64,000 nucleotides of DNA from Acidobacteriota bacterium (GCA_965263035.1 OZ253580.1:4928001-4992000), one strand, 5' to 3'; positions 3,319 to 55,468 are shown, counted from the stretch's first letter. The notes: generated from the sequence alone by a model not told the origin. Translations and numbers: made by a program.

Positions 3319-3499
3319 GGATCAGAACGAATACTTGAGAGCCACCTGGACCTGGCGGGCAGGGGACGCTTCGCCCAGCGCCCCGAAGTCGGCCGTGCCG
3401 AACTGGTTGACCCTGGCCTTGCGCCGGAGGACGAAGTTGGTGCGGTTGGCGGCGTTGAACATCTGCAGCCGAAATTCCAGACTCTGGCCTTCGTTCAGG
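3319..3499 (-). repeat. direct-repeat copy of the 3' end of the TonB receptor gene (partner 5653-5833)
   Basis: 3319-3468 equals 5653-5802 with one mismatch; a further ~30 bp are divergent but alignable; encodes ...RLQMFNAANRTNF...LKYSF-stop. Confidence 0.95.
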
Positions 3500-3626
3500 G
3501 GCGTGGTTTCTCTGAGTGCAGTCTGCTCCATTGCCTTATCCGCATCTTTGAAACGGAGCCTATGGTGCGCTACCGAACGGAGACAGTCTGCACAGTCTAG
3601 CAACCGGAAAGAGAGTGCCAAGCTAG

Positions 3627-3785
3627 GAGCCTGCGCCGCAGAAATTGATCTACTGCGAAAGCGGTAGAATCAGTCCATATTTCCCCGATTTCTCGGCGAA
3701 TAGAACAACTATGCACCTCAAAATCGAGAAAATCTGGCCTCGATTCCCCACTTTCTCGCTACGATCATTTCTACCGCGCAGACTC
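3627..3785. mobile_element. 159-bp fold-back MITE, family 1, copy 1
   Basis: Ends GAGCCTGCGC...GCGCAGACTC, flanked on both sides by CTAG; near-identical inverted copy at 61815-61973. Confidence 0.85.
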
Positions 3786-3801
3786 CTAGCGCGGCGTAAT
3801 T

Positions 3802-4407
3802 TCAAGTGCTCGGAATGGCATTCGGGTTCCGGTGAGCGACCTGCGCCACGATCGTGTCGAAGAAATCGGTGAAGGGCTGAGAAGTCGAGACAATCGAAGC
3901 CGATGAGCCAAAGTTGACCTTTACCAGTACAAAGTCTTCGATCATTCCAGTTGCCCAAGCCGGTGGCCTTCTGCCGGACAGTGAAGTCAATCGACGCTCT
4001 GCGACCTCGGCCCAGGTCGATCCGTACTTCGGCGACACGACGTCCTGTTCGACGTTGAAGATCATGACGTAGCCAATGGCGATTTCGGGGGAGTGCAACT
4101 GAGCGTTTGCTGCCTCGCCGATCATGTCGTCGATCCTGTTGGGGACGGTTCCCGCCAAGTTTCTCAAAATGGACTTCAGCGAGATCCCGAGCCGGTATTT
4201 CCCGTGGTAACGCCACGCGACGTCCCACTGCTTGCTTCTTCCCGCTCCTGGAATCGAAGACTCCGTTTCGACGCCTCTCAGTCCTCGTCGCTCCAGTTCT
4301 TGGACACAGTAGTCCGCCAGTCTTGCCAATCGAAGGGTCGACGTGGCTTTGCCCTCGAGAACCGCAATCCGATAGAGGCGGGTTATTGCGTCTTGGAGTG
4401 AAGTCAC
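3802..4407 (-). CDS. type II restriction endonuclease, PD-(D/E)xK fold, XhoI/PaeR7I-like
   Basis: KQWDVAW...GISLKS...NRIDDMIGEA.N resembles the KxWD...ELKS...NR.EE..G pattern; directly downstream of an MTase. Confidence 0.7.
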   Translation of the reverse strand: MTSLQDAITRLYRIAVLEGKATSTLRLARLADYCVQELERRGLRGVETESSIPGAGRSKQWDVAWRYHGKYRLGISLKSILRNLAGTVPNRIDDMIGEAANAQLHSPEIAIGYVMIFNVEQDVVSPKYGSTWAEVAERRLTSLSGRRPPAWATGMIEDFVLVKVNFGSSASIVSTSQPFTDFFDTIVAQVAHRNPNAIPST

Positions 4408-4416
4408 GGATCCGCT

Positions 4417-5478
4417 TCAGACAGCAACGAGAGACGCTGACGATTTCCCGGTGTTGACGGCTGGGGTTCGCTGCCGTCCGGCAATCCGGCCAGGGCTTAT
4501 GGTCACGTCCTTCCACAGGCGGTTGGTCTCGTTGCGTAGGCGCTTGAGCGCGATCTCGAAATATGCCGGATCGACCTCGATGCCGACGCTGTTTCTTCCG
4601 CAAGCAATGGCGGCAACCTGAGTCGAGGCGGTTCCCATAAAGGGGTCCAACACGGTATCGCCCACAAAGCTGTACATTCGGATGAGCCGTTCGGCCAATT
4701 CCACCGGAAATGGAGCAGGGTGCGTGCGCGTCGAGGCGCCCCTGATATCGGTCCAAACTTGGCGAAAGAGCTTCTGGAAGTCTTCGCGCGAGAGCAGGCT
4801 CAAAGTCCTGGCCGCTACGGAAGGGCTCCGATAACCTCCGGGTTTTCTCTGCATAAGGATGAACTCAATGTCGTTTTTTATTATAGCGTTGGGCTCATAA
4901 GGTTTTCCGAGGAAACCTCCCCCGCCACGGTCGACTTCGTAAGTGGCGTTGGAAATCTTGTTCCAGATGATCGGCGCGAGATTGTCGAATCCCAGATCGC
5001 GACAACGCTCCTGTATGGAGGCGTGCAGCGGGACCACCGTATGTCGGCCCGAATTCCTGCGTCTCGAAAGACAGACATCCCCCACCACGCAGACGAGTCG
5101 CCCCCCGGGAACCAAGGCGGGGTAACACATGCGCCAGACCCGGTCGAGTTGGTCCAGGAACTCTGCGTAGTCCTCGATCCAGCCCAGCTGGCCGTCGGAC
5201 CGGCGATACTCCTTGAGGGTCCAGTAAGGTGGGGAGGTCAGAACCAAGTGGACCGACCCGGCGGGAAAGCTGGCATCCCTAGCGTCACCCAGAAACACCT
5301 TGTGCTCCGTGGGGACCCTGCTCATGGCGGACTCTATCTTCGCCATGGCGGATGGATTTTTCGCGAGGCGCGGCAACTCGCGCGCGGGGTCCTTAAGATT
5401 CCGGAGATCTTCCGGTACTAGCGCTTCAAGCATTCCGTCTGACTTGGTGTGATTGCCGTTCTTCATCCCGTGACGCAA
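4417..5478 (-). CDS. site-specific DNA methyltransferase, beta class (N4-C/N6-A)
   Basis: LTSPPY (motif IV) N-terminal; HPAPFP and VLDPFMGTAST (motif I) C-terminal; start codon uncertain. Confidence 0.92.
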   Translation of the reverse strand: MRHGMKNGNHTKSDGMLEALVPEDLRNLKDPARELPRLAKNPSAMAKIESAMSRVPTEHKVFLGDARDASFPAGSVHLVLTSPPYWTLKEYRRSDGQLGWIEDYAEFLDQLDRVWRMCYPALVPGGRLVCVVGDVCLSRRRNSGRHTVVPLHASIQERCRDLGFDNLAPIIWNKISNATYEVDRGGGGFLGKPYEPNAIIKNDIEFILMQRKPGGYRSPSVAARTLSLLSREDFQKLFRQVWTDIRGASTRTHPAPFPVELAERLIRMYSFVGDTVLDPFMGTASTQVAAIACGRNSVGIEVDPAYFEIALKRLRNETNRLWKDVTISPGRIAGRQRTPAVNTGKSSASLVAV

Positions 5479-5652
5479 GTGCCATAAGGCAGGTTCACCG
5501 CTTCAGGAACACCCGGGACGGATTTACCTGCTGCGTGTGACCGTCGTCGGAAGTGGCCTCAGTATGTCCAACGATCAAGCAGCATCAATATACGCGGTCA
5601 TGATGACATGCTGGCCGATTTTCGTCGTGCTGCCGATCGTCGCAGGTCCGTC

Positions 5653-5833
5653 GGATCAGAACGAATACTTGAGAGCCACCTGGACCTGGCGGGCAGGGGA
5701 CGCCTCGCCCAGCGCCCCGAAGTCGGCCGTGCCGAACTGGTTGACCCTGGCCTTGCGCCGGAGGACGAAGTTGGTGCGGTTGGCGGCGTTGAACATCTGC
5801 AGGCGCAGCTCCAGATTCTGTCCTTCGGTCAGG
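5653..5833 (-). repeat. direct repeat forming the 3' end of the intact TonB receptor gene (partner 3319-3499)
   Basis: Direct sequence comparison; offset 2334 bp. Confidence 0.95.
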
Positions 5834-8800
5834 CGGAAGGAGCGCCGGAGCGAGAGGTCCACGTTGGCCAGGCCGGGACCCTCCACCGTGGTCCGCCCGG
5901 CGTTGCCGTAGCGAAAGCCGTCGGGTCGGACGAAGGCGTCCGTGTCGAACCACCGGTTGGGCGTGCGCTGGTCCGGCGGCAGGTTCGGATTTCCGATCCG
6001 GTCCGGCCATTGAGAAAATTCGGAGCCCACGTCCAGAGCGTCGCCCGGGAGGTAGACGCTGAACCAGGGACCGTCCTGGAAACTGGAGATGACCTGGAGG
6101 GACCAACCACCCAGAATCGCCCCCATAGGCCCACTCTGGAAGTAGGGCTTTCCCCGGCCGAAGGGAGGCTCGTAACCGGTGGTGAGGACCAACCGGCGCC
6201 GGACGTGGAGCTCGGAGAGTCCGCGGTTGAGGTGCAGCGGCAGGTTCCGGCTCCTGAAATAGCGCCGCTCATACGACCCTTCCCAACCGCCGCCGGTGTT
6301 GATCTGGCTCGACCAGGTCAAGGAGCCGCTCAGATGGAGTCCTTCCGCTCCGGGACGCCGTTCCACCCGAAACTGCATGCCGTGATATCTGGAGTCGGCG
6401 TCGGCCATGGGGACGTGGACGGCCTGAAGCTGGGGAAAGGGACGGCGGGCCTGCCGGTCTCCAGTGCCGGGACGAGCGTCGTTGAGCGATACCGTATCCA
6501 GCTGGTTCGCCGTGTGGGACCCTAGATAACCCGCCTCCAACATCAGGAGAGGAGTGAATTTGTGCTGCATGGAGAGGCCCCAGACGTGCGTCGATGAGAG
6601 AGGCAACGGGGTCTCCACTCCATAGATGGTGGGAACGGCCGATCCGGCCAGGGTTGCGGGAAATGGGTCGGACAAGCTCAGGCCGGGAGTCTCCAAGGGC
6701 GCATTGAAGGTCGAGCGGATGGCGCCCTCGCGCGGAGTTCGGGTCAGGCGATAGAGTATCCCCGTGTCCAGTTCGTTGGCATAGATGCCGTAGCCAAGCC
6801 GCACCACCGAGTTGGAACCCACCCGCCATGCCATCCCCGCGCGGGGCAGGAAACCCTCACTTCGCCTCCAGCTCACCAGCGGAATTCCCGCCGGAAAGCG
6901 GCCGGTCTCTCCTGCCTTCAGGTCCAGATCCAAGGGGGACGCCGCAATGGCTCCCCGGTGGGGATCGAAATTGGAGACGAACCCTCTTTTGTCCTTCCAC
7001 GGGAACCTCCCCTCGTACCGGAGCCCGAGGGTCAGGGTCAGCCGCGAATTCAGTTTCCAGTCGTCCTGGACGAACAGATAGAGGGCGTTCTGGTGGAGGT
7101 TCCCCCGGTACGACTCCCCTCCCAGAGTGGTGCGGGCCGGATAGCCGAGCAGGAAATCGCCGAGCGCCCGCCCGGTGTAGCGATCGAAGAAGTCGAACTG
7201 GGACCGGGCGTCCATGTTGATGAAGAGGTAGTGCTGGCGGAACTCGGCGCCGGTCTTCAGTGAGTGGTCTCCCCGCTGGAAACTGATCAGTTCCTTGATC
7301 TGCCAGTTCCCGGTGATGGACGGTCCCTGAAGGCTGATGTCTCCCAGGTTGGTGTAGCCCTGGATCTGTACGATGGGAATTCCGATTCGATCCACTTCGC
7401 TGGCTTGGAGCTCAGGGACGCCCAGGCCCATCGACGCCTCAGGCTTGGGATTGGAGGGTGCCGCGATGTAGGGCCTTCGTGTCCAGTGCAAGCTGGCCAC
7501 GTTGGTGAGGCCGCCCGGTAGGGTCCGGGTGTTGGTGATGCTCTGGCCGTAGGCGCGGAGAGGTTGGACGGCGGAGAATGCGGAGATGAGGCGCACGGTG
7601 ACGTAGGGTCCCGAATTCCAGACGAAGCGCCCCGACCAGCGGCTCCGATCCGAATCCTTGAAATCGACTCTCGAAATGAACTGGGGGTTGTCGTAAGGCG
7701 CGAAGGAGTCGGGGCTGGTGAAGTTGAGCGCCCCTGCCGTGTTGGGCCGGGGAAAGAAGGCCAGAAGCCTCTTCGCCACCGGATTGATCCGGTCTGCAGG
7801 AATAGTGTTGTTGGGGAACGGTCGGCCCGTGGCCGGATCCATCAGGGTGGTGGAGAAACGGCCCTCCCGTTCTCCATCGGTGGGAACGACCCCCGTCAGC
7901 GGACGGATCTCCCGGATGGACTCGTGTTGGTACGAGACGAAGAACCAAGCCCGGTCCCGTCCGTCCAACAGGCGGGGAATCCGGATCGGCCCCCCCAAGG
8001 TGGCCCCTATCTGGTTGCGCTTGTACTCCTGCTTCTCGGGCTCGAAGAAGTTGCGGGCGTCCAGGTTGTCGTTGCGGTGAAACCAGAACAGGTTGCCGTG
8101 AAAGTCGTTGCCCCCGCTTCGGGTGACCGCCACGATCTGTCCTCCGGGGCGGATCCCGTACTCGGCCCCGTAGAGGCCGGTCTTGACCTCGAATTCCTGC
8201 AGGGCGTCGGTGCTGGGCTTGAAGTTGGAAAAGCGAGGAAACAGAGACCCGTCCACATAGGTGACGTTGTCCCGCTGCCGCATCCCCTGGACCCGGATGT
8301 TCCCCATGGCGCTTCCCGAGGTGCTGGTGCTGCTGGCGGGAGCCGTCCCCGGAGCCAAGGTCGCCAACTGGGTGAAGTCGCGAGAATTCAGAGGCATGTC
8401 TTCCAGTTTCTTGCGGCCGATGACCTCTCCCAGCTCGGCGTCCTCCGATTCCAATTGGAGACCCTGCGCCCGGGTGCGGCGGACATCGTCCCAGTCTCCG
8501 GACAACAGATTGAAGTCCTGGCGAACCGTCTGTCCCACTTGAAGCAGGATTCCGGTGCGCACCTCTTTCTGGTATCCGCCCAGACTCACTCCGATCTCAT
8601 AGTCGCCGACGGGCACCCCGTCCAGGCGGTAGTTGCCGTTCGCCGCGCTCAGAGCCACGAAGACTTCGTTGGTCTGAATCCGGGTGAGGGTCAGTTCGAC
8701 GCCGCTGAGGGTCCCATTCTGACCGTCCCGCACGGTTCCCAGGAGAGTTCCGGTCCCCGATTGTGCGGTGACGAGGTTTCCGGTCAGGAGCAGGAGTCCT

Positions 8801-8847
8801 GCAGCCAGAACCAGGATGAGGGAAAGGGAGTGCGGCGGCCTGTGCAT
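5656..8847 (-). CDS. TonB-dependent receptor, Oar/carboxypeptidase-regulatory-domain type
   Basis: Signal peptide, N-terminal GTVRD...G.YEI domain, AEYG...GGQI...TRSGGNDFHG, QDDWK...LTLGLRYE, C-terminal LKYSF. Confidence 0.9.
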   Translation of the reverse strand: MHRPPHSLSLILVLAAGLLLLTGNLVTAQSGTGTLLGTVRDGQNGTLSGVELTLTRIQTNEVFVALSAANGNYRLDGVPVGDYEIGVSLGGYQKEVRTGILLQVGQTVRQDFNLLSGDWDDVRRTRAQGLQLESEDAELGEVIGRKKLEDMPLNSRDFTQLATLAPGTAPASSTSTSGSAMGNIRVQGMRQRDNVTYVDGSLFPRFSNFKPSTDALQEFEVKTGLYGAEYGIRPGGQIVAVTRSGGNDFHGNLFWFHRNDNLDARNFFEPEKQEYKRNQIGATLGGPIRIPRLLDGRDRAWFFVSYQHESIREIRPLTGVVPTDGEREGRFSTTLMDPATGRPFPNNTIPADRINPVAKRLLAFFPRPNTAGALNFTSPDSFAPYDNPQFISRVDFKDSDRSRWSGRFVWNSGPYVTVRLISAFSAVQPLRAYGQSITNTRTLPGGLTNVASLHWTRRPYIAAPSNPKPEASMGLGVPELQASEVDRIGIPIVQIQGYTNLGDISLQGPSITGNWQIKELISFQRGDHSLKTGAEFRQHYLFINMDARSQFDFFDRYTGRALGDFLLGYPARTTLGGESYRGNLHQNALYLFVQDDWKLNSRLTLTLGLRYEGRFPWKDKRGFVSNFDPHRGAIAASPLDLDLKAGETGRFPAGIPLVSWRRSEGFLPRAGMAWRVGSNSVVRLGYGIYANELDTGILYRLTRTPREGAIRSTFNAPLETPGLSLSDPFPATLAGSAVPTIYGVETPLPLSSTHVWGLSMQHKFTPLLMLEAGYLGSHTANQLDTVSLNDARPGTGDRQARRPFPQLQAVHVPMADADSRYHGMQFRVERRPGAEGLHLSGSLTWSSQINTGGGWEGSYERRYFRSRNLPLHLNRGLSELHVRRRLVLTTGYEPPFGRGKPYFQSGPMGAILGGWSLQVISSFQDGPWFSVYLPGDALDVGSEFSQWPDRIGNPNLPPDQRTPNRWFDTDAFVRPDGFRYGNAGRTTVEGPGLANVDLSLRRSFRLTEGQNLELRLQMFNAANRTNFVLRRKARVNQFGTADFGALGEASPARQVQVALKYSF

Positions 8848-8900
8848 CTTCGGTGCCTGATGGCCTCCAGAATAGCACGAAACCCCCGGCACCACGGGCT

Positions 8901-9036
8901 GGAACCGGCGGTTTCCAACCGCCGAAGTCGCGATGGAGCACGGGAGAATGAGTGCAGGGGGAAACTGAGGTATGGGCGTCCGGAAGTCACCCCTCCGGAT
9001 TAGACGAAGGAGGGTGCCCAAAAGGGGCGCCCCTAC
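8901..9036. repeat. cluster of REP-like palindromes
   Basis: GGAACCGGCGGTTTCCAACCGCCG (8901-8924) and minus-strand GTAGGGGCGCCCCTTTTGGGCACCCT (9011-9036, GTAG-type); related copy at 21427-21450. Confidence 0.65.
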
Positions 9037-18796: not shown

Positions 18797-18832
18797 GTTT
18801 TAGAATCTTCTCCGATAGTGGGGAGGTAACCG

Positions 18833-29715: not shown

Positions 29716-29723
29716 AGAGAGAC

Positions 29724-33302: not shown

Positions 33303-33374
33303 TTCCTGATTCTACACAAAGCCTGAAGGTACTGGAACGGCTACCGTCCGGTTCGAGGACCGCCTTGAAGATAT

Positions 33375-33534: not shown

Positions 33535-33772
33535 ATATGGTTCGGTGGCCGTCGGCCGAATGGCCGGCTTTTCCTGTTCTCGAAAACCGGTGTCGATCGG
33601 CCCGTCGAAAAAAGCCCCATTTCGCCCGTTAATGCTAACGTTGAGGCGGTCTAACGATAGATTCCAGGAGTGTAAATCAGAGGATCGGGCCAGCGTAGAG
33701 AAGATCCGTAATTGACATAAAGAGGGCCGTGGTTTTCTCCCCTATTCGAGATCCCGGGGCGTTTGCCTTGTT

Positions 33773-36475: not shown

Positions 36476-36740
36476 GGAGAATTTCAGATTCCTGTCCCTT
36501 CGATCCTCCCCAGGGCAGCCTTTTCTCAGCCGGGCAGCACTGAGCTTTGTTCTGGTACAATCTGAGTTCATAAGCCCGTGCTCCCGTGATTCCGTAAGTC
36601 GTTGTTAAAAAAGAACTTATAGCACAGAACCCGGCATATATCCAGGTTTCCGGCGAGAACTGCGGGCAAGGAGGCTGGACTCGACGTTCCGAAGAGCGTT
36701 TCAGGACCGAAGATTGTCATCATCGCAGAGGAGATGGAGA

Positions 36741-41583: not shown

Positions 41584-41741
41584 CAGCCCTTTTCGTTCGA
41601 GGCTGCCAGTGACTGAATTCCAGGGCGAGAATAGAGTGCTCGCGAAGGACGGGTTTCCCCCCATCATATGTTGACAATATCTAGAAGGCTGGCGGTGAAA
41701 GCCCCGAGACCGCACGCGGCTTTCACCACGCACTGCGCTAG

Positions 41742-41899
41742 CAGCCCGTGGCAAAAGTCGTCACGGCATTCGACCGTCCCTGCATCCCGGCGGACTGCGT
41801 TGCGACTCGGTCACATACTCCCGGTATGCTCCCTCATCGCGCCTTGTCCGGCGGGCGCAGGACCGGTCTCGGTGCTCGCGGGACTTTCACCACGGACTG
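41742..41899 (-). mobile_element. fold-back MITE, family 2, copy B
   Basis: CAGCCCGTGGCAAAAGTC...GACTTTCACCACGGACTG; CTAG on both sides. Confidence 0.87.
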
Positions 41900-42029
41900 C
41901 TAGCATACAACCGTGGCGGTCGATTTAGCCATAAATTCGGGTAGTGCCAGCGCTGTCGATTTGTTCGACCAACAAGTTATTCATCACCACACCGGGAGAC
42001 CGTCTTCCACCACCAGGAGGGATCATCAC

Positions 42030-44156: not shown

Positions 44157-44249
44157 TCGCCAACCGGACCGTGTCTTCACTCCTCCACCAACTGGAAGGC
44201 GAAGAGCCTGGCCTCGTCCGGATGGGATTTCAGTTGAATGGATTTGCCA

Positions 44250-45806: not shown

Positions 45807-45824
45807 CGAGCTCCATGCCCTTGA

Positions 45825-46904
45825 TCAGGGCGTTTGTTTTTCCAGGCGCCATCCCGATCCGTCAACGCTGAGGGCGCGGTGGCCCTTATAGCGGTCATTC
45901 AGGGCGTGCATTTCCTCGATGCTGTCAAAGTAGCCGACGATGAAGGCAGCGCTGAAGGATTCGCCGGCCTTGATCGGCCGGCCCCCAATCTCCTCGATGA
46001 AGATCACAATCCCGGGCCGCTGGTTGCACCACGCCTCGTAGACGACGGAGGGTTCGAGCGTGATACCTGCCAGCCACGGACCCTGTTTGCCCGTTTTCGG
46101 GTCGCGCAAGCGGTAGGCGCGGATGAAATGCTCCGGCATTTCGTGCGTGTCTCGCCGGTAGTTGAATTTTTCATCGGGCGGGAAGACGTCGTAGAACTCG
46201 CTGGGCGGGATACGGAGCCCGTCCGAACCACCCAGGTAACTGAGGTAGATCTCGCTGAACGTCTCGCCGCGCTGGTGGCGGACACAGCCCGGCAGGTCGA
46301 TGCGGAGGAACATTTCGTCCGAGTCGTTGACGCTGTCGATTCTGTCCATCGAGAAGAAGTAGCGCTTGCCTTTCGGGAACACCAGTAGCTGAGTCCATTG
46401 CGATCCGGCGTTGTAGCCGGGAGCGGCGTACTCGTAGCGGTAGGTCGTCTTTACGGCGACGAAATCCTTGCCCCGGATCACCTGGGGTTGGACCGGCTTC
46501 ATCCTGTGGCAGAGCTGGGGCCCCTCGATGATGCGCTTGGCCCGCTTACCGTGGTTGTCGTTGTTGTACAGATAACGAACCGTCTTTGTACCTTGCTCCT
46601 GCCAGGCCTCGTCGCTGCCGGGCTCCATGATCCAGTCCACAATGCAGAGCCCGTCGCCGGCTTCGCGGAAGCCGGTGCTCTTATCGAGAAACGATCCCTT
46701 TTCGATGCCGGTCATCCACTGCTTGGGGTTCTTCTTGGGGATGACGGCTTCGAGTTTGCCGGTCTCGATCTTGATGGTGTTGTCGTCCTCGGTAATGCGC
46801 GCCCACGGCCCCATGCCCGCCGGTTCGGCCAGCAGCGTTCCGGCGCTGGCCAGCGCCATGAGAGTCAGGACAATCAGTGGTTTGGATGAGCGATGGGTTG
46901 GCAT
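45825..46904 (-). CDS. secreted hypothetical protein
   Basis: Signal peptide; long ORF with coding-like composition; no family recognised. Confidence 0.7.
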   Translation of the reverse strand: MPTHRSSKPLIVLTLMALASAGTLLAEPAGMGPWARITEDDNTIKIETGKLEAVIPKKNPKQWMTGIEKGSFLDKSTGFREAGDGLCIVDWIMEPGSDEAWQEQGTKTVRYLYNNDNHGKRAKRIIEGPQLCHRMKPVQPQVIRGKDFVAVKTTYRYEYAAPGYNAGSQWTQLLVFPKGKRYFFSMDRIDSVNDSDEMFLRIDLPGCVRHQRGETFSEIYLSYLGGSDGLRIPPSEFYDVFPPDEKFNYRRDTHEMPEHFIRAYRLRDPKTGKQGPWLAGITLEPSVVYEAWCNQRPGIVIFIEEIGGRPIKAGESFSAAFIVGYFDSIEEMHALNDRYKGHRALSVDGSGWRLEKQTP

Positions 46905-47130
46905 GGATGTTTCCCTTGTAGTTTTGGCAGGCGTCACGCGGACCCGTCAAGCTGCCTGAGCACTTGTTTCAAAACCGGACGGTCACCATCTGGTTCATAT
47001 CCTCGTCGAAAGAGCAACTGCTTCGACGGAACTTCTGATCCGGAGTTCGGGACCGGACAGGGTGGTGAGGTATACTGTCGATAATCCAACGGTCGAAATG
47101 GAAGTCCTGTTGAAGGCCGCGCTAAGTTCC

Positions 47131-48768
47131 ATGTCTCTTCCGGGTCGGCGGCTGGTCTGTGCAGCGCTTTTTGTGCTCGGCCTCATTTATTGTGCTCACT
47201 CGAGCCGCGAGGCCTCCCTTTCAGTTCGCATCCTCGATGCCGGCACCGGTCAACCCACGCCGGTGCGGGTCTTGCTGACGGACTCGGACGGCAACACTCC
47301 CCGGGTCACGGGCGCCTTGGCGGTCTCGGAATCTGCGCTCCCCATCCCGGACGCCGCCATTCCGGTCATGTACGGGCGCTACGATCGCGCGGAAGGGTAT
47401 CTGCTTCAGCCCGACGGCTCCTTCTATGTCGACGGGTCCTTCGAGGCGCAACTGCCCGCGGGGTCCTATTCGCTCAAGCTGTCCAAGGGATATGAGTTCG
47501 TTGCGCAAACCGTGAAGCTCGATCTCGACCCGGGCGAGAGCCTTTCCCGAGAGTACAAGCTGGAGCGATGGATCGACATGCCCGGGCGTGGCTGGTACTC
47601 GGGGGACGATCACATTCACCTGCGGCGGTCGCCGCGCGACGATCCGGCCATTCTTCGCTGGACGGCGGCAGAGGATGTGCACGTGGCGCATCTTCTCCAA
47701 ATGGGGGATTTCTGGGCGACTTATTACTCTCAATATGCTTGGGGCGGCAGGGGCCGCTACCGCGAAGGGGACTACATCCTCTCGCCCGGTCAGGAAGGCC
47801 CCCGGACGCCCGAGATCGGTCACACGATTTCGCTCGGCGCGGAAGAGTTCGTTCGATTTCGGGACGATTACTATAACTACGGCCGTGTTTTCGACCAGGT
47901 ACACGAACTGGGAGGCATTACCGGCTTCGCCCATCAAGCGATGACCTTTCACGGTTATCGTGGAATGACACTCAACGTATTGCGAGGGAAGCTCGACTTT
48001 CTCGAGGTGATGCAGTTCTGTCCACAGGAAGGGCCGCTGGCGCTGCAGCACTATTATCATTTCCTGGATCTTGGATATCAGCTTACGGCGTTAGGTGGCT
48101 CGGACTTTCCCTGGTGTGGGCGAGGACCTCGCTTCGGCCTGGAAGAGGGGTGTTCGCAGATCGGCGACGCCCGGTTTTATACCTATACCGGCGACAGCCT
48201 CTCGTTTGACCGCTGGCTGCAGGGCGTAAAGGCAGGCCGCACCTTCGTTACCAGCGGACCGATGCTGGAGTTTACGGTGAACGGCCGGCTTCCCGGCGAG
48301 ACGCTGGATGTCGAATCGGGCACTGGTATAAGGATCTCAGCCAAAGCCTACGGGCAGGCGTCTCAAATCCCCTTACGTCAACTGGAAATCGTAGGACATT
48401 CCAAAACGCTGAAGAAAGTCTCTGCAGGGGAGCCGGGCCAGAGTGAAGAGTTGCTTTCTATCGAGATGGAGCTGCCGGTGCAACGTGGGATCTGGGTCGC
48501 CGCCCGGACCGATGCCGCCCACACCCAAGTCGCCCATACGACGCCAGTCTACGTCAGAGTGAACGGAGCGAGCTTCCACAACCCGGCAACGGCTGATCGC
48601 TACCTCGAGCTTTGTCGCAGCTACCTGAAGGAGTTGGAAGAGGATCTGGCCCATCCGGAGGAAAGAAACGGCAACCAAGCCGTCCGACACAAACAGAACC
48701 TGGAACGGCAGATCATTGAAACCAGAACCGCGCTCAAGCACTTGGCTTCGCGTCTGGGCCGGGAATGA
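47131..48768 (+). CDS. CehA/McbA family (PHP-like) metallohydrolase
   Basis: SKGYEF, RWIDM...GWYSGDDHIH, AH, GGSDFP, GRTFVTSGP, AHTTPVYV. Confidence 0.82.
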   Translation: MSLPGRRLVCAALFVLGLIYCAHSSREASLSVRILDAGTGQPTPVRVLLTDSDGNTPRVTGALAVSESALPIPDAAIPVMYGRYDRAEGYLLQPDGSFYVDGSFEAQLPAGSYSLKLSKGYEFVAQTVKLDLDPGESLSREYKLERWIDMPGRGWYSGDDHIHLRRSPRDDPAILRWTAAEDVHVAHLLQMGDFWATYYSQYAWGGRGRYREGDYILSPGQEGPRTPEIGHTISLGAEEFVRFRDDYYNYGRVFDQVHELGGITGFAHQAMTFHGYRGMTLNVLRGKLDFLEVMQFCPQEGPLALQHYYHFLDLGYQLTALGGSDFPWCGRGPRFGLEEGCSQIGDARFYTYTGDSLSFDRWLQGVKAGRTFVTSGPMLEFTVNGRLPGETLDVESGTGIRISAKAYGQASQIPLRQLEIVGHSKTLKKVSAGEPGQSEELLSIEMELPVQRGIWVAARTDAAHTQVAHTTPVYVRVNGASFHNPATADRYLELCRSYLKELEEDLAHPEERNGNQAVRHKQNLERQIIETRTALKHLASRLGRE

Positions 48769-48828
48769 CTTTGCTCGGGGCTTTGAACGCAATGCACCTA
48801 CCGCTCGGACTTCTTGCCGGAGGCCCTT

Positions 48829-50505
48829 TCACTGCCTGAACTGGAAGGCGTACAGGTCGGTATCATTCATGACGAACCGGAGTCGGATCGGCTTTCCGGC
48901 GAGACGACTCAGGTCCGACTGCCGGTGCCAGGTGACGATCCGGTTCATCTCGTTGGTGGTGTGAATACGGTCGCAGTCCGCCAGTCGAAAACCTTCCAGG
49001 GGATTGTCGAACTCGTCCAGTATTTCTACCCTGAGCGTGCCTAAGGCTGAGGTGTCGACGTTTAAGACCAGCTCCCTACCCTCAAATTTCAGGAGGGGGG
49101 TGGTAAACTGCCCTCCCGGGTACGATGCTCGAACGGAGATAAACCCGTCCCTCCGCAGAACCAGCCGACTGAGGGCTCGAATATTCTGAACGGGACCCAG
49201 CCCCTCCCTTCGAACCGCTTCGCTTTGAGGCTGAAAGCCCCAGGCATGTATCTGATCGCTGCCGCTGTAGTACATGTACATCTCGCGCCCGTTGAGAGCG
49301 GGAACCAGGCCGAGAATCATGTAATTGGACTTTGAATCGAATTCGCCTTTCATGCCCAAGTCCACAAAGGCGCGGCGGTCGTATCGGTGCCAGTCAATGC
49401 CATCCCGACTTGCTGCAAAACGGATGTCCAGTGGTCCCGTGTTGGCAGCCGTCTGACCTTCCCGAGGCATGGTCTCTCCTTTCTTGTCCCAGAAAGATTC
49501 GAAATCGAAGACTGAATCGTTTTCGAATTCGCGGAGGAACCTGCTGTGGTAGTGGTAATAGGCCGAGGGGAACATGTAGTAAGCATCCTGGGCCCAGGGA
49601 TACTTCACAGTGGCATTCGTATACAAATCCATGACCTGGACATTACGGTCTTCCCTCGAATCGTAGTGGTGGGGATCCAAGTGATCGACAGCCAGTACGA
49701 CGGGCGTAACCTCGGCATTCATGAACCGTTCGAGATGGTCCGATTCGCTGCGGGCCACGGCCCTGCCCTGTGATCCGGGAGGACGCAGATTTCGGCGGAT
49801 GTAGGCTGCATATTTGTGGATGCGATCATCCCAAAAGATCACATTTGGGGAATCCAGGTGGTGCTTCTTCGACTCGAAAACGATGACGGATTTGCGGGTG
49901 AGGCTCCAGTGGATTCCGTCTGGGGAAGAAAACAGGTGCAGGGCGGAAGCGGGGAGCGCAGGGGGGTTTCTGACGTAAGCCAACTGGCGAAATCTCTCTT
50001 CGGCAACTGCGTTGGGGTCCAGAAACACAGTGGTGCCGATGAGTCCCTCTTTGACGCCTCCGGCACCGTAGCCAAGAACGATGTTGTTCTCCGTGCTTCC
50101 GAAGATCTCAGCCAGACCCAGCATGGGCTTTTCCCAGTGAATCCCGTCCTGGGAGCGTGCATAAGCCAGACTCTGAAACCTCCCTTTATTCCACATCGGT
50201 TCGCCGGTGTCGGGATCCCTCTTCTTGGGAGCCCTGGCGCTGTACCAGAGGTGGTAGACATCCCCTGCCTTGATGACGGTGGAGGAGCCGGAAATTACGG
50301 TTTCCCAGGGGTGTTCCGGCGCAATCGTGATCTGGTTCGTCTTGATCGGCTGGTGAACGACCAACTCGACGCCCTCCGAAACCTCCAGCAAGCGCCCGTC
50401 GATGAACACCTGCCTTCGGCTGGCGACATCCAGAAGGTTGTTCCGGGCAGGCAGAACCGTCTGAGCCATCAGCATGGCCAGCAGTGCAAACCATATTGTT
50501 CGCAT
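48829..50505 (-). CDS. secreted beta-propeller hydrolase-like family protein
   Basis: Signal peptide; RQVFID, PWE, YARSQDGIHWEKP, DSPN.IFWD, LRRDGFIS, DLYAFQF. Confidence 0.78.
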   Translation of the reverse strand: MRTIWFALLAMLMAQTVLPARNNLLDVASRRQVFIDGRLLEVSEGVELVVHQPIKTNQITIAPEHPWETVISGSSTVIKAGDVYHLWYSARAPKKRDPDTGEPMWNKGRFQSLAYARSQDGIHWEKPMLGLAEIFGSTENNIVLGYGAGGVKEGLIGTTVFLDPNAVAEERFRQLAYVRNPPALPASALHLFSSPDGIHWSLTRKSVIVFESKKHHLDSPNVIFWDDRIHKYAAYIRRNLRPPGSQGRAVARSESDHLERFMNAEVTPVVLAVDHLDPHHYDSREDRNVQVMDLYTNATVKYPWAQDAYYMFPSAYYHYHSRFLREFENDSVFDFESFWDKKGETMPREGQTAANTGPLDIRFAASRDGIDWHRYDRRAFVDLGMKGEFDSKSNYMILGLVPALNGREMYMYYSGSDQIHAWGFQPQSEAVRREGLGPVQNIRALSRLVLRRDGFISVRASYPGGQFTTPLLKFEGRELVLNVDTSALGTLRVEILDEFDNPLEGFRLADCDRIHTTNEMNRIVTWHRQSDLSRLAGKPIRLRFVMNDTDLYAFQFRQ

Positions 50506-50552
50506 TCCAAGTCTCCTTCCAATCCCAGGGAGCAAACCTGTCGGGGCGCACC

Positions 50553-50591
50553 AAAAAAAGCCGGCCATCAGATCTGACAGCCGGCTTTTTT
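50553..50591 (-). terminator. intrinsic terminator downstream of the TonB receptor gene (possibly bidirectional)
   Basis: Minus strand GCCGGCTGTCA-gatc-TGATGGCCGGC followed by T7; A-tract on the other side. Confidence 0.75.
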
Positions 50592-50605
50592 CTTGCCGGT
50601 TATAA

Positions 50606-50763
50606 CAGCCCGTGGTGAAAGTCCCGCGAGCACCGAGACCGTTCCTGCGCCCGCCGGACAAGGCGCGACGAGGGAGCATACCGGGAGTATGTGACCGAGT
50701 CGCAACGCAGTCCGCCGGGATGCAGGGACGGTCGAATGCCGTGACGACTTTTGCCACGGGCTG
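50606..50763 (+). mobile_element. fold-back MITE, family 2, copy C
   Basis: CAGCCCGTGGTGAAAGTC...GACTTTTGCCACGGGCTG; flanks ATAA/TTAA. Confidence 0.85.
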
Positions 50764-50781
50764 TTAACCTTGTGTCCCCGA

Positions 50782-53700
50782 TCAGAAAATGAACTTCACA
50801 CCAAACTGGACGATTCGCGGGCCCGAGGAGAAGCCCTGCGTCCCAAACCCGCTGCTCCTGGGGTTGGTATTGACCGCGTTGCGGTAGCCGCCCCAGAAGT
50901 AGTGCGAATTGAGGAGATTATAGGCTTCCAACCGAAACTGGGCTTGAAACCGTTCACCGATGAAAGTGTTCTTGACAAGAGTCAACCCCACGTCCGTGGG
51001 CGCCATATCCCGGACCCCGGAAAGACGAAGGGGAAAGGTGCGCAGATTGAAGGCGGGCTGTTTGGCGGAGCTCCTCTCAAACCCGGCATTCTGGTTGAAC
51101 ATTCGCGTCGCCTCATGCTGGCCGACCGGGATTTTCTTGATGTCGCCCCGGAAAATAATATTCCCCCATTTCATGGGGATTCCACTTTGCGCGAACCCAA
51201 TGAAGGTTGCACTCCACCCACTGATCAGGTGACTGGCAAGGCCCGAATTGGGTCCAAAGCGCTGGCCCTTGCCGAAGGGGAAGCTGAAGGTGCCCGCAAA
51301 GCGAAGGACATGGGGACGGTCGTTAATGCCGATCGTCCTTTCCGGCGCCGGGTCAATTCCGAAACCGTTGAGGAACTGCAGTTCCTCCATGGTCTTACCC
51401 CAGGTGTAACTGCTCTGAACGTCCCAGCCCCAAAGGTCCTGTGCCCGGAATTCCATCTGCAGGGCGTTGTAGTCAGTCGAGCCGACCTTGTCGGCCCACG
51501 AGCGAAGCCCCGTAATATGGGGAAAAGGTCGCAGCAGAGCCTGCCGTTGGATTGTCGACGCCACTCCCAGAGAACCACCCACACCCTCAACTCCCTGGAA
51601 CGGGTTCGGGACCCGCGCCGTCATGTAGTCGATATGGGCCTGATCCCGCTCTATCGATCTGGTCAAGTACTGCCCCGGCAGCCGGTTATGGTCGTTATTG
51701 GCAATGCCGAAGTCCCTCGTCCGGTTCCCCACATAGCGCACTTCCAGGGTGGCGTTGGGCGACAATCTGCGCTGGATGCCCAACTGAAACTGGTGAGCAT
51801 AGGGGTTTGTGGTACTTCGATCGAGCCCGTGGTTCATCCAGATGAGCTGGCCCAGATTGGTCATCAGTCCATTGCTGGACCCCCTGGGTTGGTTTAAGCC
51901 ACCCGGGAAGAGATCGTCCAGAGAGCCTGAAAAGGTCAAGCCTCCGTCGGTGCTGGAAAAGGCGAATGTGCTCGTGTCGAATCCGGCAATCGGAAAACGG
52001 GCAGCGAAGTGACGCTGGTTCAGGGGGATGAAAGTACGCGAGTAGCCGCCTTTCAGGACCGTGTTGTCATTCAAACGGTAGGCCGCGCCGATCCGCGGAG
52101 AAAAGTTGTTATTGTCAGAGTCGTAGACGGTGCGGGGTTCTCCATCAACTCCGGCAAAGAGCACGCCTCCCATCAGCCGAAACTGATCCGCCGGGATTTC
52201 CCGAATCGGGTTCTTGGCATAATTTGCCTGGACCGCTGCCGAGATAGGATTCTCCACGTCAGCCGCCCATCGTGTCAGTGCCTGGTCATGCATCTCGGTG
52301 GGGGGACCTTCGCGCTCCCACCGGAGCCCGAGGTTCAAGGTGAGTCTGGGTGTGACTTTCCAGTCATCTTGGAGATAGATGCCTGTATAGGTGGAATAAT
52401 TCGCATAATCGGCACGTACGTTCCTGTTGGTGGAGGAATGGAGGCCCAACAGAAAGTCTGCCAGACCGTGGCCCCGCGGAGGGGGCGGGGAGTTGTCGAA
52501 GGGACCACTGGAAAATTGACCGGTGAAGAAAGTTCGGGCTTGATCGCTTCGAACGGAGTTGTAGACATAGCCCCTCCATTCGGCCCCAAACCTGAAACTG
52601 TGGTTCCCCGAAATCTGGGTGAAGTGGGCGGAGGCGCTTCGAATCTCATCAACCTGCAGGCCCGGATCGAAATTCGTAAACCCGTTGTGGCCACCGGGAA
52701 GGTTACTCAGCTTGGGGTAACCGGTGATTGAAACATAGGGAAAACCCGTAAACTCGACGTCGACGAACTGGGACATGTTTGTGGGGAGATCCGCCCAGGT
52801 CAGTCCCCCCGCGTTGTTCCGAGCCCTTGAGGTATGCCGATTGTTCGTGGCGCGAAAGTCAGCCACGAAAGTGGGGTTGATGGTCCAAACGTCGCCGACC
52901 GAGAAATTCCAAATCTGGTGTCGCGTACCGTGCACGTCGACGCACTCGCAGCCCGGACCTCCCGGGTGATTGTCGAACATGGTCCACCCGCTGGAAGGAC
53001 CGTCTGAATTGAGATACCTGCCAAACAGTGTGTGCGAATCGTTCAAGTCATGGTCGATTCGAAGAACCGTGTGCCGGTCCGTTCTGGGAAGCGGGGTATA
53101 GCCTTTGTCGTAAAGATAGTTGCGAAAGCCGTCCGGACTCGCCCCACTCGCATTGTTGGGGGCAAGGAAGAACCCGAGGAGGGGTGCCGAAATCGGGTGG
53201 ATGCGACTGGATGGAATGATATTGTTGGGGAAGGGTTGGCGCTCGACTCGCCCCTCCGCGTTCAGAACCGCGGTCATTGGGTCGTAGAGCTGATACTCCG
53301 GGTCCAGTGCCAGCAGGTCCGAAAAGTCGCCGGACTTATGTGCCGCTCTGGGTACGGTTGCCTGAGAGTCACCGAACCTGACCTGTTCCCAATGGGTCCA
53401 GCCCAGAAAGAAGAAGGTCTTGTCCTTGATGACCGGACCTCCTCCTGTAAAACCGTAACGCTTGTAGGGAAAACTGCTTCTATTCTGTCCAGCCCTGTTG
53501 CGGACCCAGCTGTTCGCGTTGAACATGTCATGGCGCCCGAAGTAAAAGGCCTCACCGTGATAGTCATTGGTGCCCGTTTTCATGATGACGTCAACGGTCG
53601 TGCTGCCGGTATGCCCCACACTGGCATCGAAGGTGGTGGTTTGGATGCGCACTTCCTTCACCAGTTCCGTGGTCGCATTGAAGGAAACGGCACCGCCGTC

Positions 53701-54348
53701 GACCGCATTGTTCCGCTGGGTGTTGGGAGTTCCGTCCATCGTAAACTCTGCAGTTCCCGTGGGCATTCCGTTGAACCGGACCAGACCGGATCCAGCCCGC
53801 TGATAGGGCTCCTGGTTCATACTGAAGTTGCCGTACCCTGCAGCTGAGTCGGCCGAGGGTGAAAGCAGGAAAAGATAAGTGGGGTTTCCCTGGCCGATGG
53901 GCAGCGAGGTGAGCGGCTTCTGCCCAAAGGCGACGCCCAGATCGGCATCCGCCGACTGGAGAAGCGTGGGATCAGAGGTCACCGTCACGCTGTCTTCGAC
54001 CTCCCCTACGTCGAGACTGAGGTCAACCCGCACCCGCTCGTTGCTGGCGACGGGTATGTCCTCGACCACAGCGGTTTTGAAGCCCTCGAGTGCGGCCTCA
54101 ATCCGGTACTGGCCGGGCAGCAGTCCCGGGGCCTCGTAGTAACCGCTGTCGCTGGTAATCGTATTGTGGGCAATGTTGGTGGATTGATGGATGACCCTCA
54201 CCTCGGTTCCCGGAACACTGGCGCCACTCGCGTCGACGACCAGGCCCGAGATAATGGCCCGATGCCCCTGAGCCAACAACGCCGAGCCGGCACCCATCAG
54301 GCAAAACACACAGATTGCGATCACGGTCCTGTAATTTGCGGTCCACAT
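50782..54348 (-). CDS. TonB-dependent receptor, Oar/carboxypeptidase-regulatory-domain type
   Basis: Signal peptide; ISGLVVDASGA.VPG, KTGTNDYHG, QDDWKVTPRLTLNLGLRWE, FSPRIG.AY, C-terminal KFIF. Confidence 0.92.
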   Translation of the reverse strand: MWTANYRTVIAICVFCLMGAGSALLAQGHRAIISGLVVDASGASVPGTEVRVIHQSTNIAHNTITSDSGYYEAPGLLPGQYRIEAALEGFKTAVVEDIPVASNERVRVDLSLDVGEVEDSVTVTSDPTLLQSADADLGVAFGQKPLTSLPIGQGNPTYLFLLSPSADSAAGYGNFSMNQEPYQRAGSGLVRFNGMPTGTAEFTMDGTPNTQRNNAVDGGAVSFNATTELVKEVRIQTTTFDASVGHTGSTTVDVIMKTGTNDYHGEAFYFGRHDMFNANSWVRNRAGQNRSSFPYKRYGFTGGGPVIKDKTFFFLGWTHWEQVRFGDSQATVPRAAHKSGDFSDLLALDPEYQLYDPMTAVLNAEGRVERQPFPNNIIPSSRIHPISAPLLGFFLAPNNASGASPDGFRNYLYDKGYTPLPRTDRHTVLRIDHDLNDSHTLFGRYLNSDGPSSGWTMFDNHPGGPGCECVDVHGTRHQIWNFSVGDVWTINPTFVADFRATNNRHTSRARNNAGGLTWADLPTNMSQFVDVEFTGFPYVSITGYPKLSNLPGGHNGFTNFDPGLQVDEIRSASAHFTQISGNHSFRFGAEWRGYVYNSVRSDQARTFFTGQFSSGPFDNSPPPPRGHGLADFLLGLHSSTNRNVRADYANYSTYTGIYLQDDWKVTPRLTLNLGLRWEREGPPTEMHDQALTRWAADVENPISAAVQANYAKNPIREIPADQFRLMGGVLFAGVDGEPRTVYDSDNNNFSPRIGAAYRLNDNTVLKGGYSRTFIPLNQRHFAARFPIAGFDTSTFAFSSTDGGLTFSGSLDDLFPGGLNQPRGSSNGLMTNLGQLIWMNHGLDRSTTNPYAHQFQLGIQRRLSPNATLEVRYVGNRTRDFGIANNDHNRLPGQYLTRSIERDQAHIDYMTARVPNPFQGVEGVGGSLGVASTIQRQALLRPFPHITGLRSWADKVGSTDYNALQMEFRAQDLWGWDVQSSYTWGKTMEELQFLNGFGIDPAPERTIGINDRPHVLRFAGTFSFPFGKGQRFGPNSGLASHLISGWSATFIGFAQSGIPMKWGNIIFRGDIKKIPVGQHEATRMFNQNAGFERSSAKQPAFNLRTFPLRLSGVRDMAPTDVGLTLVKNTFIGERFQAQFRLEAYNLLNSHYFWGGYRNAVNTNPRSSGFGTQGFSSGPRIVQFGVKFIF

Positions 54349-54451
54349 CTCTGCATCCTCCCTTTGGCGGATTAATATGTCCGCCCAGATGGCAAAATCA
54401 CGCTCCTGACAGACTCAGTCAGACAACGAGACGATTTTTGCCTTGTTCTTG

Positions 54452-54612
54452 CAGTCTGTGGTGATAGTCCCGCGTAGCACCGAGACGGGGGCTGTGAGCG
54501 CCGGACAAGGCGCGGCCAGGCAGCATACTTGACCGTATGTGATCAAGGAGTTAATGGAGTGCGCCGGGATGCAGTCCCGACCGAATGCCGTGCCGACTTT
54601 TACCACGGGCTG
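54452..54612 (+). mobile_element. fold-back MITE, family 2, copy D (most diverged)
   Basis: CAGTCTGTGGTGATAGTC...GACTTTTACCACGGGCTG; central CATAC-ttgacc-GTATG. Confidence 0.8.
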
Positions 54613-54671
54613 TTGGAAAAGAAATTGCTAGGTTACTAACAGTTAATAATTATCTAATTATCGTTGAGTTT

Positions 54672-54687
54672 AGCAAGAATGGTGCCA
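54672..54687 (-). promoter_or_regulatory. sigma-54 (-24/-12) promoter facing the TonB receptor gene
   Basis: Minus strand TGGCAC-CATTC-TTGCT matches TGGCAC-N5-TTGCW in an AT-rich intergenic stretch. Confidence 0.75.
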
Positions 54688-54849
54688 CGTTACTCAAGAA
54701 GCTGACTAAGTGGAGGCATTTCTTTACTTATGTCAACTGGGCAGCCCCCGCGATCAACCCTCTTGATCCAATAAATTGAATTTCCAAGAGGCAAAAAAGG
54801 AAAAAACCAAAAACTTGGATTTTTCGAGTGCTTTTGCCGCCCTCCCTGT

Positions 54850-54999
54850 CGGCCTGTGGCAAAAAGTCTGGGGGAGTCGGTCCGGTGTGTTGAATCGTGC
54901 CCTGCCGATGGGAAAGAAACCGTCCGCAGGACGGCAGCGGAAGAAGTGCGTGGCGACCGAGAAACTGCCGCGCAGCCCCGGGCTTTTTTCCACGGGCTG
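54850..54999. mobile_element. 150-bp element with family-2-like termini but a different interior
   Basis: CGGCCTGTGGCAAAAAGTCTGGGG...CCCCGGGCTTTTTTCCACGGGCTG; flanks CTGT/CTAT. Confidence 0.6.
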
Positions 55000-55009
55000 C
55001 TATGGTAAA

Positions 55010-55171
55010 CAGCCCGTGGCAACAGTCGTCACGGCATTCGACCGTCCCTGCGTCCTGCCGCTGCTGTGCGTTGCGACTCGGTCACATACTCCCGGTATGC
55101 TCCCTCCGAAGCGTCTTGTCCGGCGGGCGCAGGAACGGTCTCGGTGCTCGCGCGACTTTCACCACGGACTG
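55010..55171 (-). mobile_element. fold-back MITE, family 2, copy E
   Basis: CAGCCCGTGGCAACAGTC...GACTTTCACCACGGACTG; TAAA on both sides. Confidence 0.87.
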
Positions 55172-55268
55172 TAAAGACCGCTACCTCAATCAGACAGACT
55201 TTCCCTGTGTCAACGGGCCTTGGAAAATTTGATGTACAATTTCCCACCGAACACCTATGGGGGGCTTT

Positions 55269-55468
55269 GGTTCCGGATCGGAGAGGCGTTTCTGGAGGTC
55301 TCGGGGGTTCCTCACCGGGGCTGCAAGAAATTCTCGAGCCGTTACGGCGCCGACGCCCTGAAGTTCGTCAACGGACCCGGGTCGAAGGACCTCCGGCTGC
55401 GCGGATGCTTCGTCTTCGTGGTGGAGGCCGGACCTGTCCGGGTCGGCGATCCCGTCCGGAAGCTGTAG
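55269..55468 (+). pseudogene. displaced 3' fragment of the MOSC gene (direct repeat of 28207-28406)
   Basis: FRIGEA.LEVS..PH.GCKKFSSRYG.DALKFVN...RKL-stop; no 5' part; stop lies 12 nt before the next gene. Confidence 0.9.

Follow-up and report, generated by a model that had tools for sequence, protein, structure and literature searches.

The window analysed here, a stretch of 64,000 nucleotides (nt) covering bases 4,928,001-4,992,000 of the single-contig genome of an Acidobacteriota bacterium (G000; 6,198,070 bp, 62% GC), contains two loci at which an intact gene is followed by unrelated cargo and then by a second, orphan copy of the gene's own tail. At locus A the gene encodes a TonB-dependent receptor and the cargo includes a DNA methyltransferase gene, and at locus B the gene encodes a MOSC protein and the cargo is an island of 26.9 kb. 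We regard both loci as probable relics of old insertions with long target duplication, which have subsequently been reshaped by decay, gene conversion and exchange between relatives. No dedicated enzyme and no system based on miniature inverted-repeat transposable elements (MITEs) is needed to account for them, and on present evidence no new mobile system is revealed.

Two duplicated gene tails in the window

A repeat search of the window showed that the tail of the TonB-receptor gene at locus A is present twice, as a direct repeat of 187 nt (3313-3499 and 5647-5833, 95% identity) that is low-copy in a BLAST search of the genome against itself (self-BLAST; E about 1e-79). Loci were compared with eight congeners (G001-G008) of the same genus, and a broader search for matches covered 31 genomes, including G016 (flagged unpublished). 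Locus A comprises the following features:

1651..3300, + strand: convergent neighbour gene, 549 aa, no Pfam or NCBIfam match, 88-91% identical in seven congeners
3313..3499, - strand: orphan copy A, comprising ~178 nt from the 3' end of the TonB-receptor gene and some of the adjoining spacer
3500..3622: 123-nt piece between orphan A and MITE-A, in G000 only among the 31 genomes searched
3623-3789: MITE-A, 167 nt, bounded by CTAG; the match to some copies starts at 3606; distance from orphan A 107-124 nt
3802..4407, - strand: partner gene of the methyltransferase, 201 aa, candidate restriction endonuclease
4417..5478, - strand: type II N6/N4 DNA methyltransferase (Pfam N6_N4_Mtase 1.6e-35; PADLOC MTase_II 1.3e-55)
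5647..5833, - strand: repeat copy A in the intact gene
5656..9021, - strand: intact TonB-dependent receptor, 1121 aa

The stop codon of orphan A lies 21 nt from that of the convergent gene, and the repeat extends beyond the stop codon into this spacer; similarity past the repeat into the convergent gene was at chance level, as 621 and 290 of 1000 shuffles reached the score. The open reading frame (ORF) of the orphan still matches Pfam OMP_b-brl_4 (positions 785-838). With regard to the cargo, which amounts to 2,147 nt between the repeat copies, the 201-aa partner gave no match in Pfam, NCBIfam, PADLOC or PDB, and the Atlas hinted weakly at small restriction enzymes, through a single cluster in which 13% of the members carry XhoI. 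The partner is conserved with 203-208 aa in G007, G002 and G008 and is also kept in G005. The cargo of loci A and B has a GC content of 0.54-0.62 versus about 0.64-0.68, and a GC content at third codon positions (GC3) of about 0.70 versus about 0.83.

The mismatches between orphan A and the intact copy are unevenly distributed, with one in 3319-3468 and seven in 3469-3499; over the whole repeat the numbers are 3/150 versus 7/37 (Fisher p 5e-4). The inner part of the orphan resembles a diverged allele like those of G003 and G001.

At locus B the last 200 nt of the MOSC gene are repeated (28207-28406 and 55269-55468, 90% identity), again as a low-copy pair in the genome self-BLAST:

27852..28406, + strand: intact MOSC gene, 184 aa, whose last 200 nt (28207-28406) are repeat copy B
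28407..55268: island B, 26,857 nt between the repeat copies, with lower GC and GC3
55269..55468, + strand: orphan copy B, the last 200 nt of the MOSC gene
55481..56620, + strand: downstream MR_MLE (enolase-superfamily) gene (Pfam)

Here the stop codon of the orphan is found 12 nt upstream of the MR_MLE gene, and the orphan ORF still matches Pfam MOSC (positions 55-120). The island holds a TonB receptor gene (50782..54348, - strand) together with FG-GAP/ASPIC, TPR, LamG, GWxTD and CehA/McbA hydrolase genes and several genes without a family. No restriction-modification (R-M) genes were found in this cargo, nor was a remnant of MR_MLE found behind the MOSC gene of G000 itself. Two of the familyless island genes (36714-38306 and 44238-45806) are paralogues of about 525 aa that share their C-terminal ends (repeat D6), and their matches in G007 and G005 cross-match at about 60% identity. 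The families represented in the window as a whole include CarboxypepD_reg and OMP_b-brl_4 TonB receptors, GWxTD and PSCyt1 (Pfam), a set that resembles the gene content of Acidobacteriota.

A first-pass annotation of the window had reported gene tails duplicated behind foreign cargo, in positions close to the neighbouring genes and with no recombinase gene nearby. These observations hold: the two tails are genuine low-copy direct repeats, the distances of 21 and 12 nt were reproduced, and Pfam scans revealed no recombinase among the 43 ORFs of the window, the 27 PF00589 matches in the genome all being outside it. The same annotation had named mis-assembly as a possible explanation. Contigs of independent public runs span the stretch from orphan A through the unique 123 nt to the MITE (3439-3650) and that from the MITE through the cargo to the TonB tail (3763-5682), and case A is therefore not an assembly error. 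Since the architecture of case B is reproduced in the G007 and G006 assemblies, mis-assembly is excluded for both. Neither an empty site nor a circle across cargo A was found in the contigs of four public runs, and contigs cannot reveal rare forms of this kind.

Locus A in related species

A species tree built from six flank segments grouped the genomes as ((G002,G003),(G006,(G007,G000))), (G001,(G008,G004)) and G005 with supports of 0.98-1.0; the tree is effectively unrooted, the rows of the sister genus having fallen below the 60% coverage filter. Locus A was recovered in seven congeners, the missing one being G006. Three of the seven (G003, G001 and G004) have exact empty sites, in which the convergent gene is followed by the same short spacer and by a single TonB tail that aligns to both repeats of G000. 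These sites show that orphan A sits in the ancestral context, as the first-pass annotation had supposed. In G007, G002 and G008 the methyltransferase and its partner are found at the same place, colinear with the TonB gene, and these loci are without orphan and without MITE; about 100 nt of other sequence follow the convergent gene. G005 has the same cargo, again without orphan, plus a 571-aa NERD/helicase-like defence gene and a 136-aa gene. The identity of the cargo to that of G000 in the four filled congeners (90, 90, 84 and 86%) tracks that of the flanks, and its presence differs between close sisters (G002 versus G003; G008 versus G004).

The two junctions of the cargo behave differently. 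The right one, between cargo and TonB gene, is colinear in G000, G007, G002 and G008, whereas the left one is distinct in G000, in G007/G002, in G008 and in G005. Similarity of the G000 segment 3500-3622 or of orphan A to the spacers of G007, G002 and G008 was at chance level, and only the spacers of G007 and G002 share sequence (about 65-73 nt) with that of G005. The 123 nt of 3500-3622 match nothing in the other genomes among the 31 searched.

In the simplest history of locus A, a single old insertion, accompanied by a long duplication, would have met with three different fates. The cargo may have been lost precisely by recombination between the repeats, or replaced by an empty allele (G003, G001, G004); the orphan may have been lost, whereby the cargo became fixed (G007, G002, G008, G005); or both repeats may have been kept, with recent gene conversion between them (G000).

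A serious rival for this locus, which we nevertheless rate as improbable, is that orphan A was left by a one-sided homologous recombination event (homology-facilitated illegitimate recombination). R-M-bearing DNA of a relative would have crossed over in the TonB gene, the other end being joined illegitimately 187 nt inside the TonB tail of the recipient. The colinear right junction in G000, G007, G002 and G008 and the left junction that differs per lineage are as such an event predicts, as are the presence of the orphan in G000 only and its inner 31 nt, which look like a diverged allele. Filled blocks do move between species, as seen at locus C5 (see below), and the model has been proposed in print for orphan-leaving displacement at type VI secretion system (T6SS) and Rhs loci of Vibrio, as set out in the available part of PMC5361080. 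However, a separate event is required for each locus, case B is left unexplained since both sides of the unit are duplicated there, and the near identity of the outer 150 nt still requires gene conversion. Moreover, no donor is visible, 3500-3622 being unmatched in the 31 genomes.

Locus B in related species

The MOSC and MR_MLE genes are separated by 24-41 kb in all eight congeners. In G007 and G005, the two examined, the island is gene-for-gene syntenic with that of G000 (83-100% protein identity), and the G007 island contains about 13 kb of additional DNA, in which the gene pair 33773-38306 occurs a second time. No integrase was found in the homologous islands of G007, G005, G006 and G001. 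In the four genomes of the sister genus that were included for this locus, neither MOSC nor any other island gene was found within 4 kb upstream of MR_MLE.

The length of orphan B agrees with the tree: G000, G007 and G006, together a clade, have it at full length. In G003, G008, G001 and G004 it is represented by ~77 nt with the same left end, and G005 and G002 have none. Compared with all intact copies, the orphans have derived bases in common; they are therefore orthologous, which means that the duplication predates the genus. The identity between an orphan and its own intact copy is 90% in G000, 82% in G007 and 94% for the G003 remnant, and the values for G000 and G003 point to gene conversion.

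The extent of the duplicated unit became apparent from G001, G004 and G008, where the copy behind the intact MOSC gene runs through the 12-nt spacer and then comprises 126 nt of MR_MLE (55730-55861). The unit was therefore at least 593 nt long (at least 55269-55861) and consisted of a gene tail, a spacer and the head of the next gene. The first-pass annotation had described the orphan copies as ending at or 3 bp past the stop codon, and as a signature of the mechanism this does not survive the comparison: the stop-codon end of repeat B in G000 is the remainder after decay of unselected pieces and no mark of targeting.

Similar loci elsewhere in the genome

Low-copy repeat pairs (80-1000 nt, 0.2-150 kb apart) were collected by self-megablast of G000, which returned 83 direct versus 4 inverted pairs. 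It should be underlined that the gene-tail counts derive from a table based on rough gene calls of our own (4,888 genes), combined with order tags and inspection. In 16 direct pairs the tail of a long gene recurs in a fragment that is short or was not called as a gene, so the architecture recurs genome-wide, as had been predicted from the two cases in the window. The order tags gave 14 pairs with the intact gene first and none with the orphan first, and the automatic frame picker mis-set the strands in several pairs, including A and B. Another 11 pairs were flagged as gene starts; of the ten that were inspected, most were by our own judgement paralogues, promoter repeats or miscalls; one proved to be an additional tail case, and an integrase was found in the cargo of another.

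The excess of direct over inverted low-copy pairs is also what ordinary tandem gene duplication with decay would give, and genuine tandem paralogues do exist in the window:

14991-18591: two tandem Xan_ur_permease paralogues, the source of repeat families D1 and D5

For loci A and B this explanation, which the first-pass annotation had listed as a way in which its proposal could fail, is refuted, as is assembly error, and the two together retain a very small probability. By family the cargo genes have nothing in common with the flanking genes, from which they also differ in composition, and empty sites exist (A and C5).

The cargo at the 16 loci is mostly of the toxin-antitoxin, R-M, defence or RAYT-like kind and includes, by Pfam, type ISP and type I R-M genes, toxin-antitoxin genes (HicA, ParE, Phd/PIN, DUF433/DUF5615), a DUF4143 ATPase, a BCCT transporter and a P450, and in three loci a RAYT-like Y1 gene of 326-383 aa. 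A DUF4143/AAA_14 ATPase is also encoded in the window itself (13578-14789), in a local GC dip and with a match to the PADLOC candidate system PDC-S01 (7.9e-52); its paralogue is the cargo between two PhyH-gene orphans at 1.80 Mb in the genome. Copies of the RAYT-like gene lie at 800.8, 1560.7, 1832.0 and 5961.1 kb in G000 and are also present in G007, G003 and G006. The gene matches NCBIfam REP_Tyr_transpos at 5e-12, which is below the cut-off, its Pfam Y1_Tnp match is weak, and it is flanked by inverted REP-like motifs around GGGACAGTC. Direct repeats of 60-240 nt flank 13 of the 26 RAYT-like copies examined, and in three of the four G000 copies the flanking repeats are tails of neighbouring host genes.

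Several of the loci were followed through the congeners. C1, in which a RAYT-like gene lies behind an ABC_ATPase gene, and C11 (genome 4998221/5000615, 6 kb beyond the window) are present in eight of eight congeners with graded loss of the orphan. As judged by sequence comparison, the integrase-free cases compared (A, B, C1 and C11) are at least as old as the genus and not recent. C5, which carries HicA beside a tRNA-Ala gene (genome 2697399-2700799), has empty sites in G005, G002, G004 and G001, and its filled block is 97-99% identical in G000, G007, G006 and G003 compared to 90-94% for the flank. The block is thus more alike than its flank, a sign that homologous recombination has recently carried it from species to species. 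At about 2698900-2699020, and in at least 12 other G000 loci, lies a third family of short repeats (copies of about 120 nt, 95-99% identical), and it is missing from the same C5 cargo in G007, G006 and G003. C8, behind an amidase gene (genome 4290699-4293899), is a hot spot whose cargo differs between nearly all species: G000 and G007 carry a DUF433/DUF5615 pair there, five congeners have other DNA of 1.2-4 kb, and the site is empty in G001 and G006.

In C13 a tyrosine integrase is present beside the orphan. This locus is specific to G000 and has a 476-nt repeat (97%) of a DUF7133-gene tail; between 5536 and 5597 kb there are at least four nested partial tail copies, with an integrase, a group II intron reverse transcriptase and insertion sequence copies between them. 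The arrangement bears the marks of serial integrase-mediated integration, and islands seem to have accumulated in tandem at a single attachment site. A tRNA-Ser island with 289-nt repeats is another integrase-bearing segment in G000.

Such segments raise the question whether A and B are decayed islands of the integrase type. A tyrosine-recombinase element would have entered a gene tail and brought a replacement tail, and the integrase and most of the element would later have been lost, leaving useful or addictive cargo and the displaced native tail. We consider this unlikely, though by no means negligible, because integrase islands with long imperfect repeats (C13 with 476 nt at 97%, the tRNA-Ser island with 289 nt, and others of the same layout) coexist with integrase-free cases in G000. 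The intact gene comes first in 14 of 14 tagged cases, gene tails dominate, and toxin-antitoxin and R-M cargo would resist deletion. On the other hand, an integrase is absent from A and B in G000 and from the islands of G007, G005, G006 and G001, and a cargo of 0.7-2 kb is too small for one. The unit at B crosses the spacer into the neighbour gene, unlike an attachment site that restores a tail, and no shared junction core turned up, although no search was aimed at one.

Fold-back MITEs beside the orphans

The central proposal of the first-pass annotation was a new trans-acting system that captures cargo at gene tails, possibly with hairpin MITEs defining one boundary. In addition to MITE-A, the window contains the following copies:

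33371-33532, 41739-41902 and 50590-50780: MITE-B copies in island B
54452..54614: old MITE-B copy, 78% identical to the reference copy, with orthologues in G007, G005 and G006
55004-55180: MITE-B copy nearest orphan B, 89 nt from it
61809-61977: another MITE-A copy, in the spacer before gene 62079..63503

MITE-A occupies 175 loci genome-wide, mostly 95-99% identical, and MITE-B, which has 21-nt inverted ends, occupies 184; within the window MITE-B is confined to island B, where it has five copies. MITE-A and MITE-B are unrelated, their best match being 8 nt. MITE-A is absent at locus A in all seven congeners with the locus recovered. The MITE-B copy at 55004-55180 is missing at its place in G007, G006 and G005, though G007 and G006 have the orphan, and it appears to be a later insertion in the G000 lineage. 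The cargo of C11 is bracketed by two MITEs in G000, but in G006, which shares this cargo and orphan, the corresponding gaps measure only 23 and 7 nt.

A MITE lies 89-117 nt from the orphan in three of the 17 catalogue entries (A, B and C11), whereas the other 14 have none within 2.5 kb. Genome-wide, a MITE is found within 500 nt downstream of the stop codon in 340 of 4,318 genes (7.9%). By our own estimate three of 16 loci do not differ significantly from a background of 8% (p about 0.13), and all three are situated in one 70-kb stretch. A unit with the same element at both ends, present together with the cargo, was not seen: A has a single MITE, B is without one at its left end, and the two of C11 are absent in congeners that carry its cargo.

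The proposed system is therefore largely refuted, and we judge it very improbable. The bracketing of C11 and the short distances at three entries are observations that it would explain, as is the position of MITE-A exactly where homology with G007 and G005 ends; for the latter, arrival of the MITE with a local deletion is possible. However, the families at A and B are unrelated, most entries have no MITE nearby, the orphan-adjacent copies in B and C11 are missing in relatives with orphan and cargo, and the events are older than the recent MITE bursts, whose copies are 95-99% identical. The MITEs are instead read as later settlers in non-coding DNA left by insertions.

Origin and fate of the duplications

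According to the explanation that we favour, foreign DNA would be inserted into the short spacer behind a gene with a long target duplication (at least 200 nt at A and at least 593 nt at B), giving the order intact upstream gene, cargo, second target copy and intact downstream gene. The duplication may have arisen by either of two routes: a long staggered break may have been filled in, or a circle made up of cargo and a piece of the target region may have been integrated by a single crossover. The duplicated pieces that are not under selection would decay or be deleted, and the surviving similarity therefore seems to end at the stop codon. Occasionally the intact gene may overwrite the orphan by gene conversion, and recombination between the repeats could remove the cargo precisely and recreate the empty site. 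Filled and empty alleles would be swapped between related species by homologous recombination in the flanking genes, and MITEs would land later in the non-coding DNA beside the orphans.

Some of our results weigh against this explanation. No young event with identical repeats was found, the best pairs being 97% (the 476-nt, integrase-bearing one) and 96% identical, and duplication at birth is therefore not demonstrated. Gene tails are over-represented, with 16 pairs versus a few convincing gene-start cases at most; such a bias would not be expected from a random process and fits targeting of the integrase type. An empty site for case B was found in none of the eight congeners or four sister-genus genomes, and the partner gene of the methyltransferase is only a candidate nuclease. 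Finally, orphan A is present in G000 only, and the sister G007 has the cargo without it. Together with the left junction that differs per lineage, this makes a later second event in G000 possible.

A more active role of the repeats can also be envisaged, in which they are working parts of an integrase-free cassette cycle: the cargo would loop out by RecA as a circle with one repeat, be transferred to a relative, and re-enter there by a single homologous crossover in the same gene, whereby the repeats would be restored, gene conversion keeping the orphan usable as a landing pad. In a sharper variant the RAYT-like Y1 genes themselves would make the long staggered breaks. We find such a cycle hard to favour and give it a low probability. 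If it operates, it would move toxin-antitoxin, R-M, defence, RAYT-like and even metabolic cargo within the genus.

Insertion with long target duplication, the explanation that we favour, has been without an established mechanism since 2000, and about 16 such loci are present here in one genome. Among sister species these loci are found empty, filled and with the orphan in place, or filled and lacking the orphan, and these three states provide a natural data set for how the duplication arises and is lost. The loci also illustrate that selection and decay can make a random-looking duplication seem aimed at stop codons, and that MITEs settling in leftover non-coding DNA can mimic the boundaries of an element. 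Of the general route at gene 3' ends that the first-pass annotation had suggested, what stands is that it is recurrent, currently integrase-free and makes use of homology, as evidenced by gene conversion and by the identities at C5. The parts that fall are the bounding by MITEs, the aiming at stop codons and the novelty of the system.

Comparison with known systems

Integrative elements that enter gene 3' ends share with our loci the order of intact gene, element and displaced partial copy, as well as imperfect repeats of 100-500 nt. Examples are islands at tRNA genes, and e14 and phage 21, which integrate at the tail of the icd gene and bring a replacement tail. Unlike these, A and B are without an integrase in G000 and in four congeners, and the duplicated unit at B includes part of the neighbour gene.

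Insertion of R-M genes with long target duplication was reportedly described by Nobusato et al. in 2000. Cases of this class were later collected by Furuta, Abe & Kobayashi (2010; PMC2853133), and the available part of that paper gives as criteria the presence of R and M genes, an insert of less than 20 kb, a duplication of more than 30 bp, the absence of any other mobile element and a relative in which the site is empty. According to the same text the repeats, listed for proteobacteria, cyanobacteria and actinobacteria, measure 46-423 bp, some include the final bases of a gene, and their identity is often below 100%; with no mechanism established, the authors suggest a virus-like cycle in which the repeats are put to use. 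A class without mobility genes had thus already been described in several phyla, at variance with the suggestion that the system is undescribed. Case A resembles this class, as portrayed there, in its methyltransferase cargo, absence of mobility genes, 187-nt repeat and single-copy empty site. With an insert of 2,147 nt, no integrase or transposase (one MITE) and a duplication of 187 nt, it agrees with the published criteria on these points, the R gene being only a candidate. Case B has the same layout, but its 26,857 nt exceed the 20-kb limit, and it has neither R-M genes nor an empty site. Compared with the class as presented in that part of PMC2853133, the layout in our genome also holds toxin-antitoxin pairs, a transporter and RAYT-like genes, and no Acidobacteriota case is noted in that text. 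A limited literature search on toxin-antitoxin genes with long target duplications brought up nothing on that subject.

Kirchberger et al. (2017; PMC5361080) describe, in the part available, homology-facilitated illegitimate recombination and orphan-leaving displacement in T6SS immunity arrays of Vibrio, and displacement of Rhs C-termini. One conserved and one variable junction, orphan 3' pieces downstream and spread among relatives are features that our loci have in common with the displacement outlined there. The difference is that the incoming 3' part there has another function, being a new toxin tip, whereas here the gene's own tail is duplicated and the DNA that was added is cargo with no relation to it. 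The kind of event is thus known; what is new is the lineage, the range of cargo and the fact that sister species hold one locus in three states.

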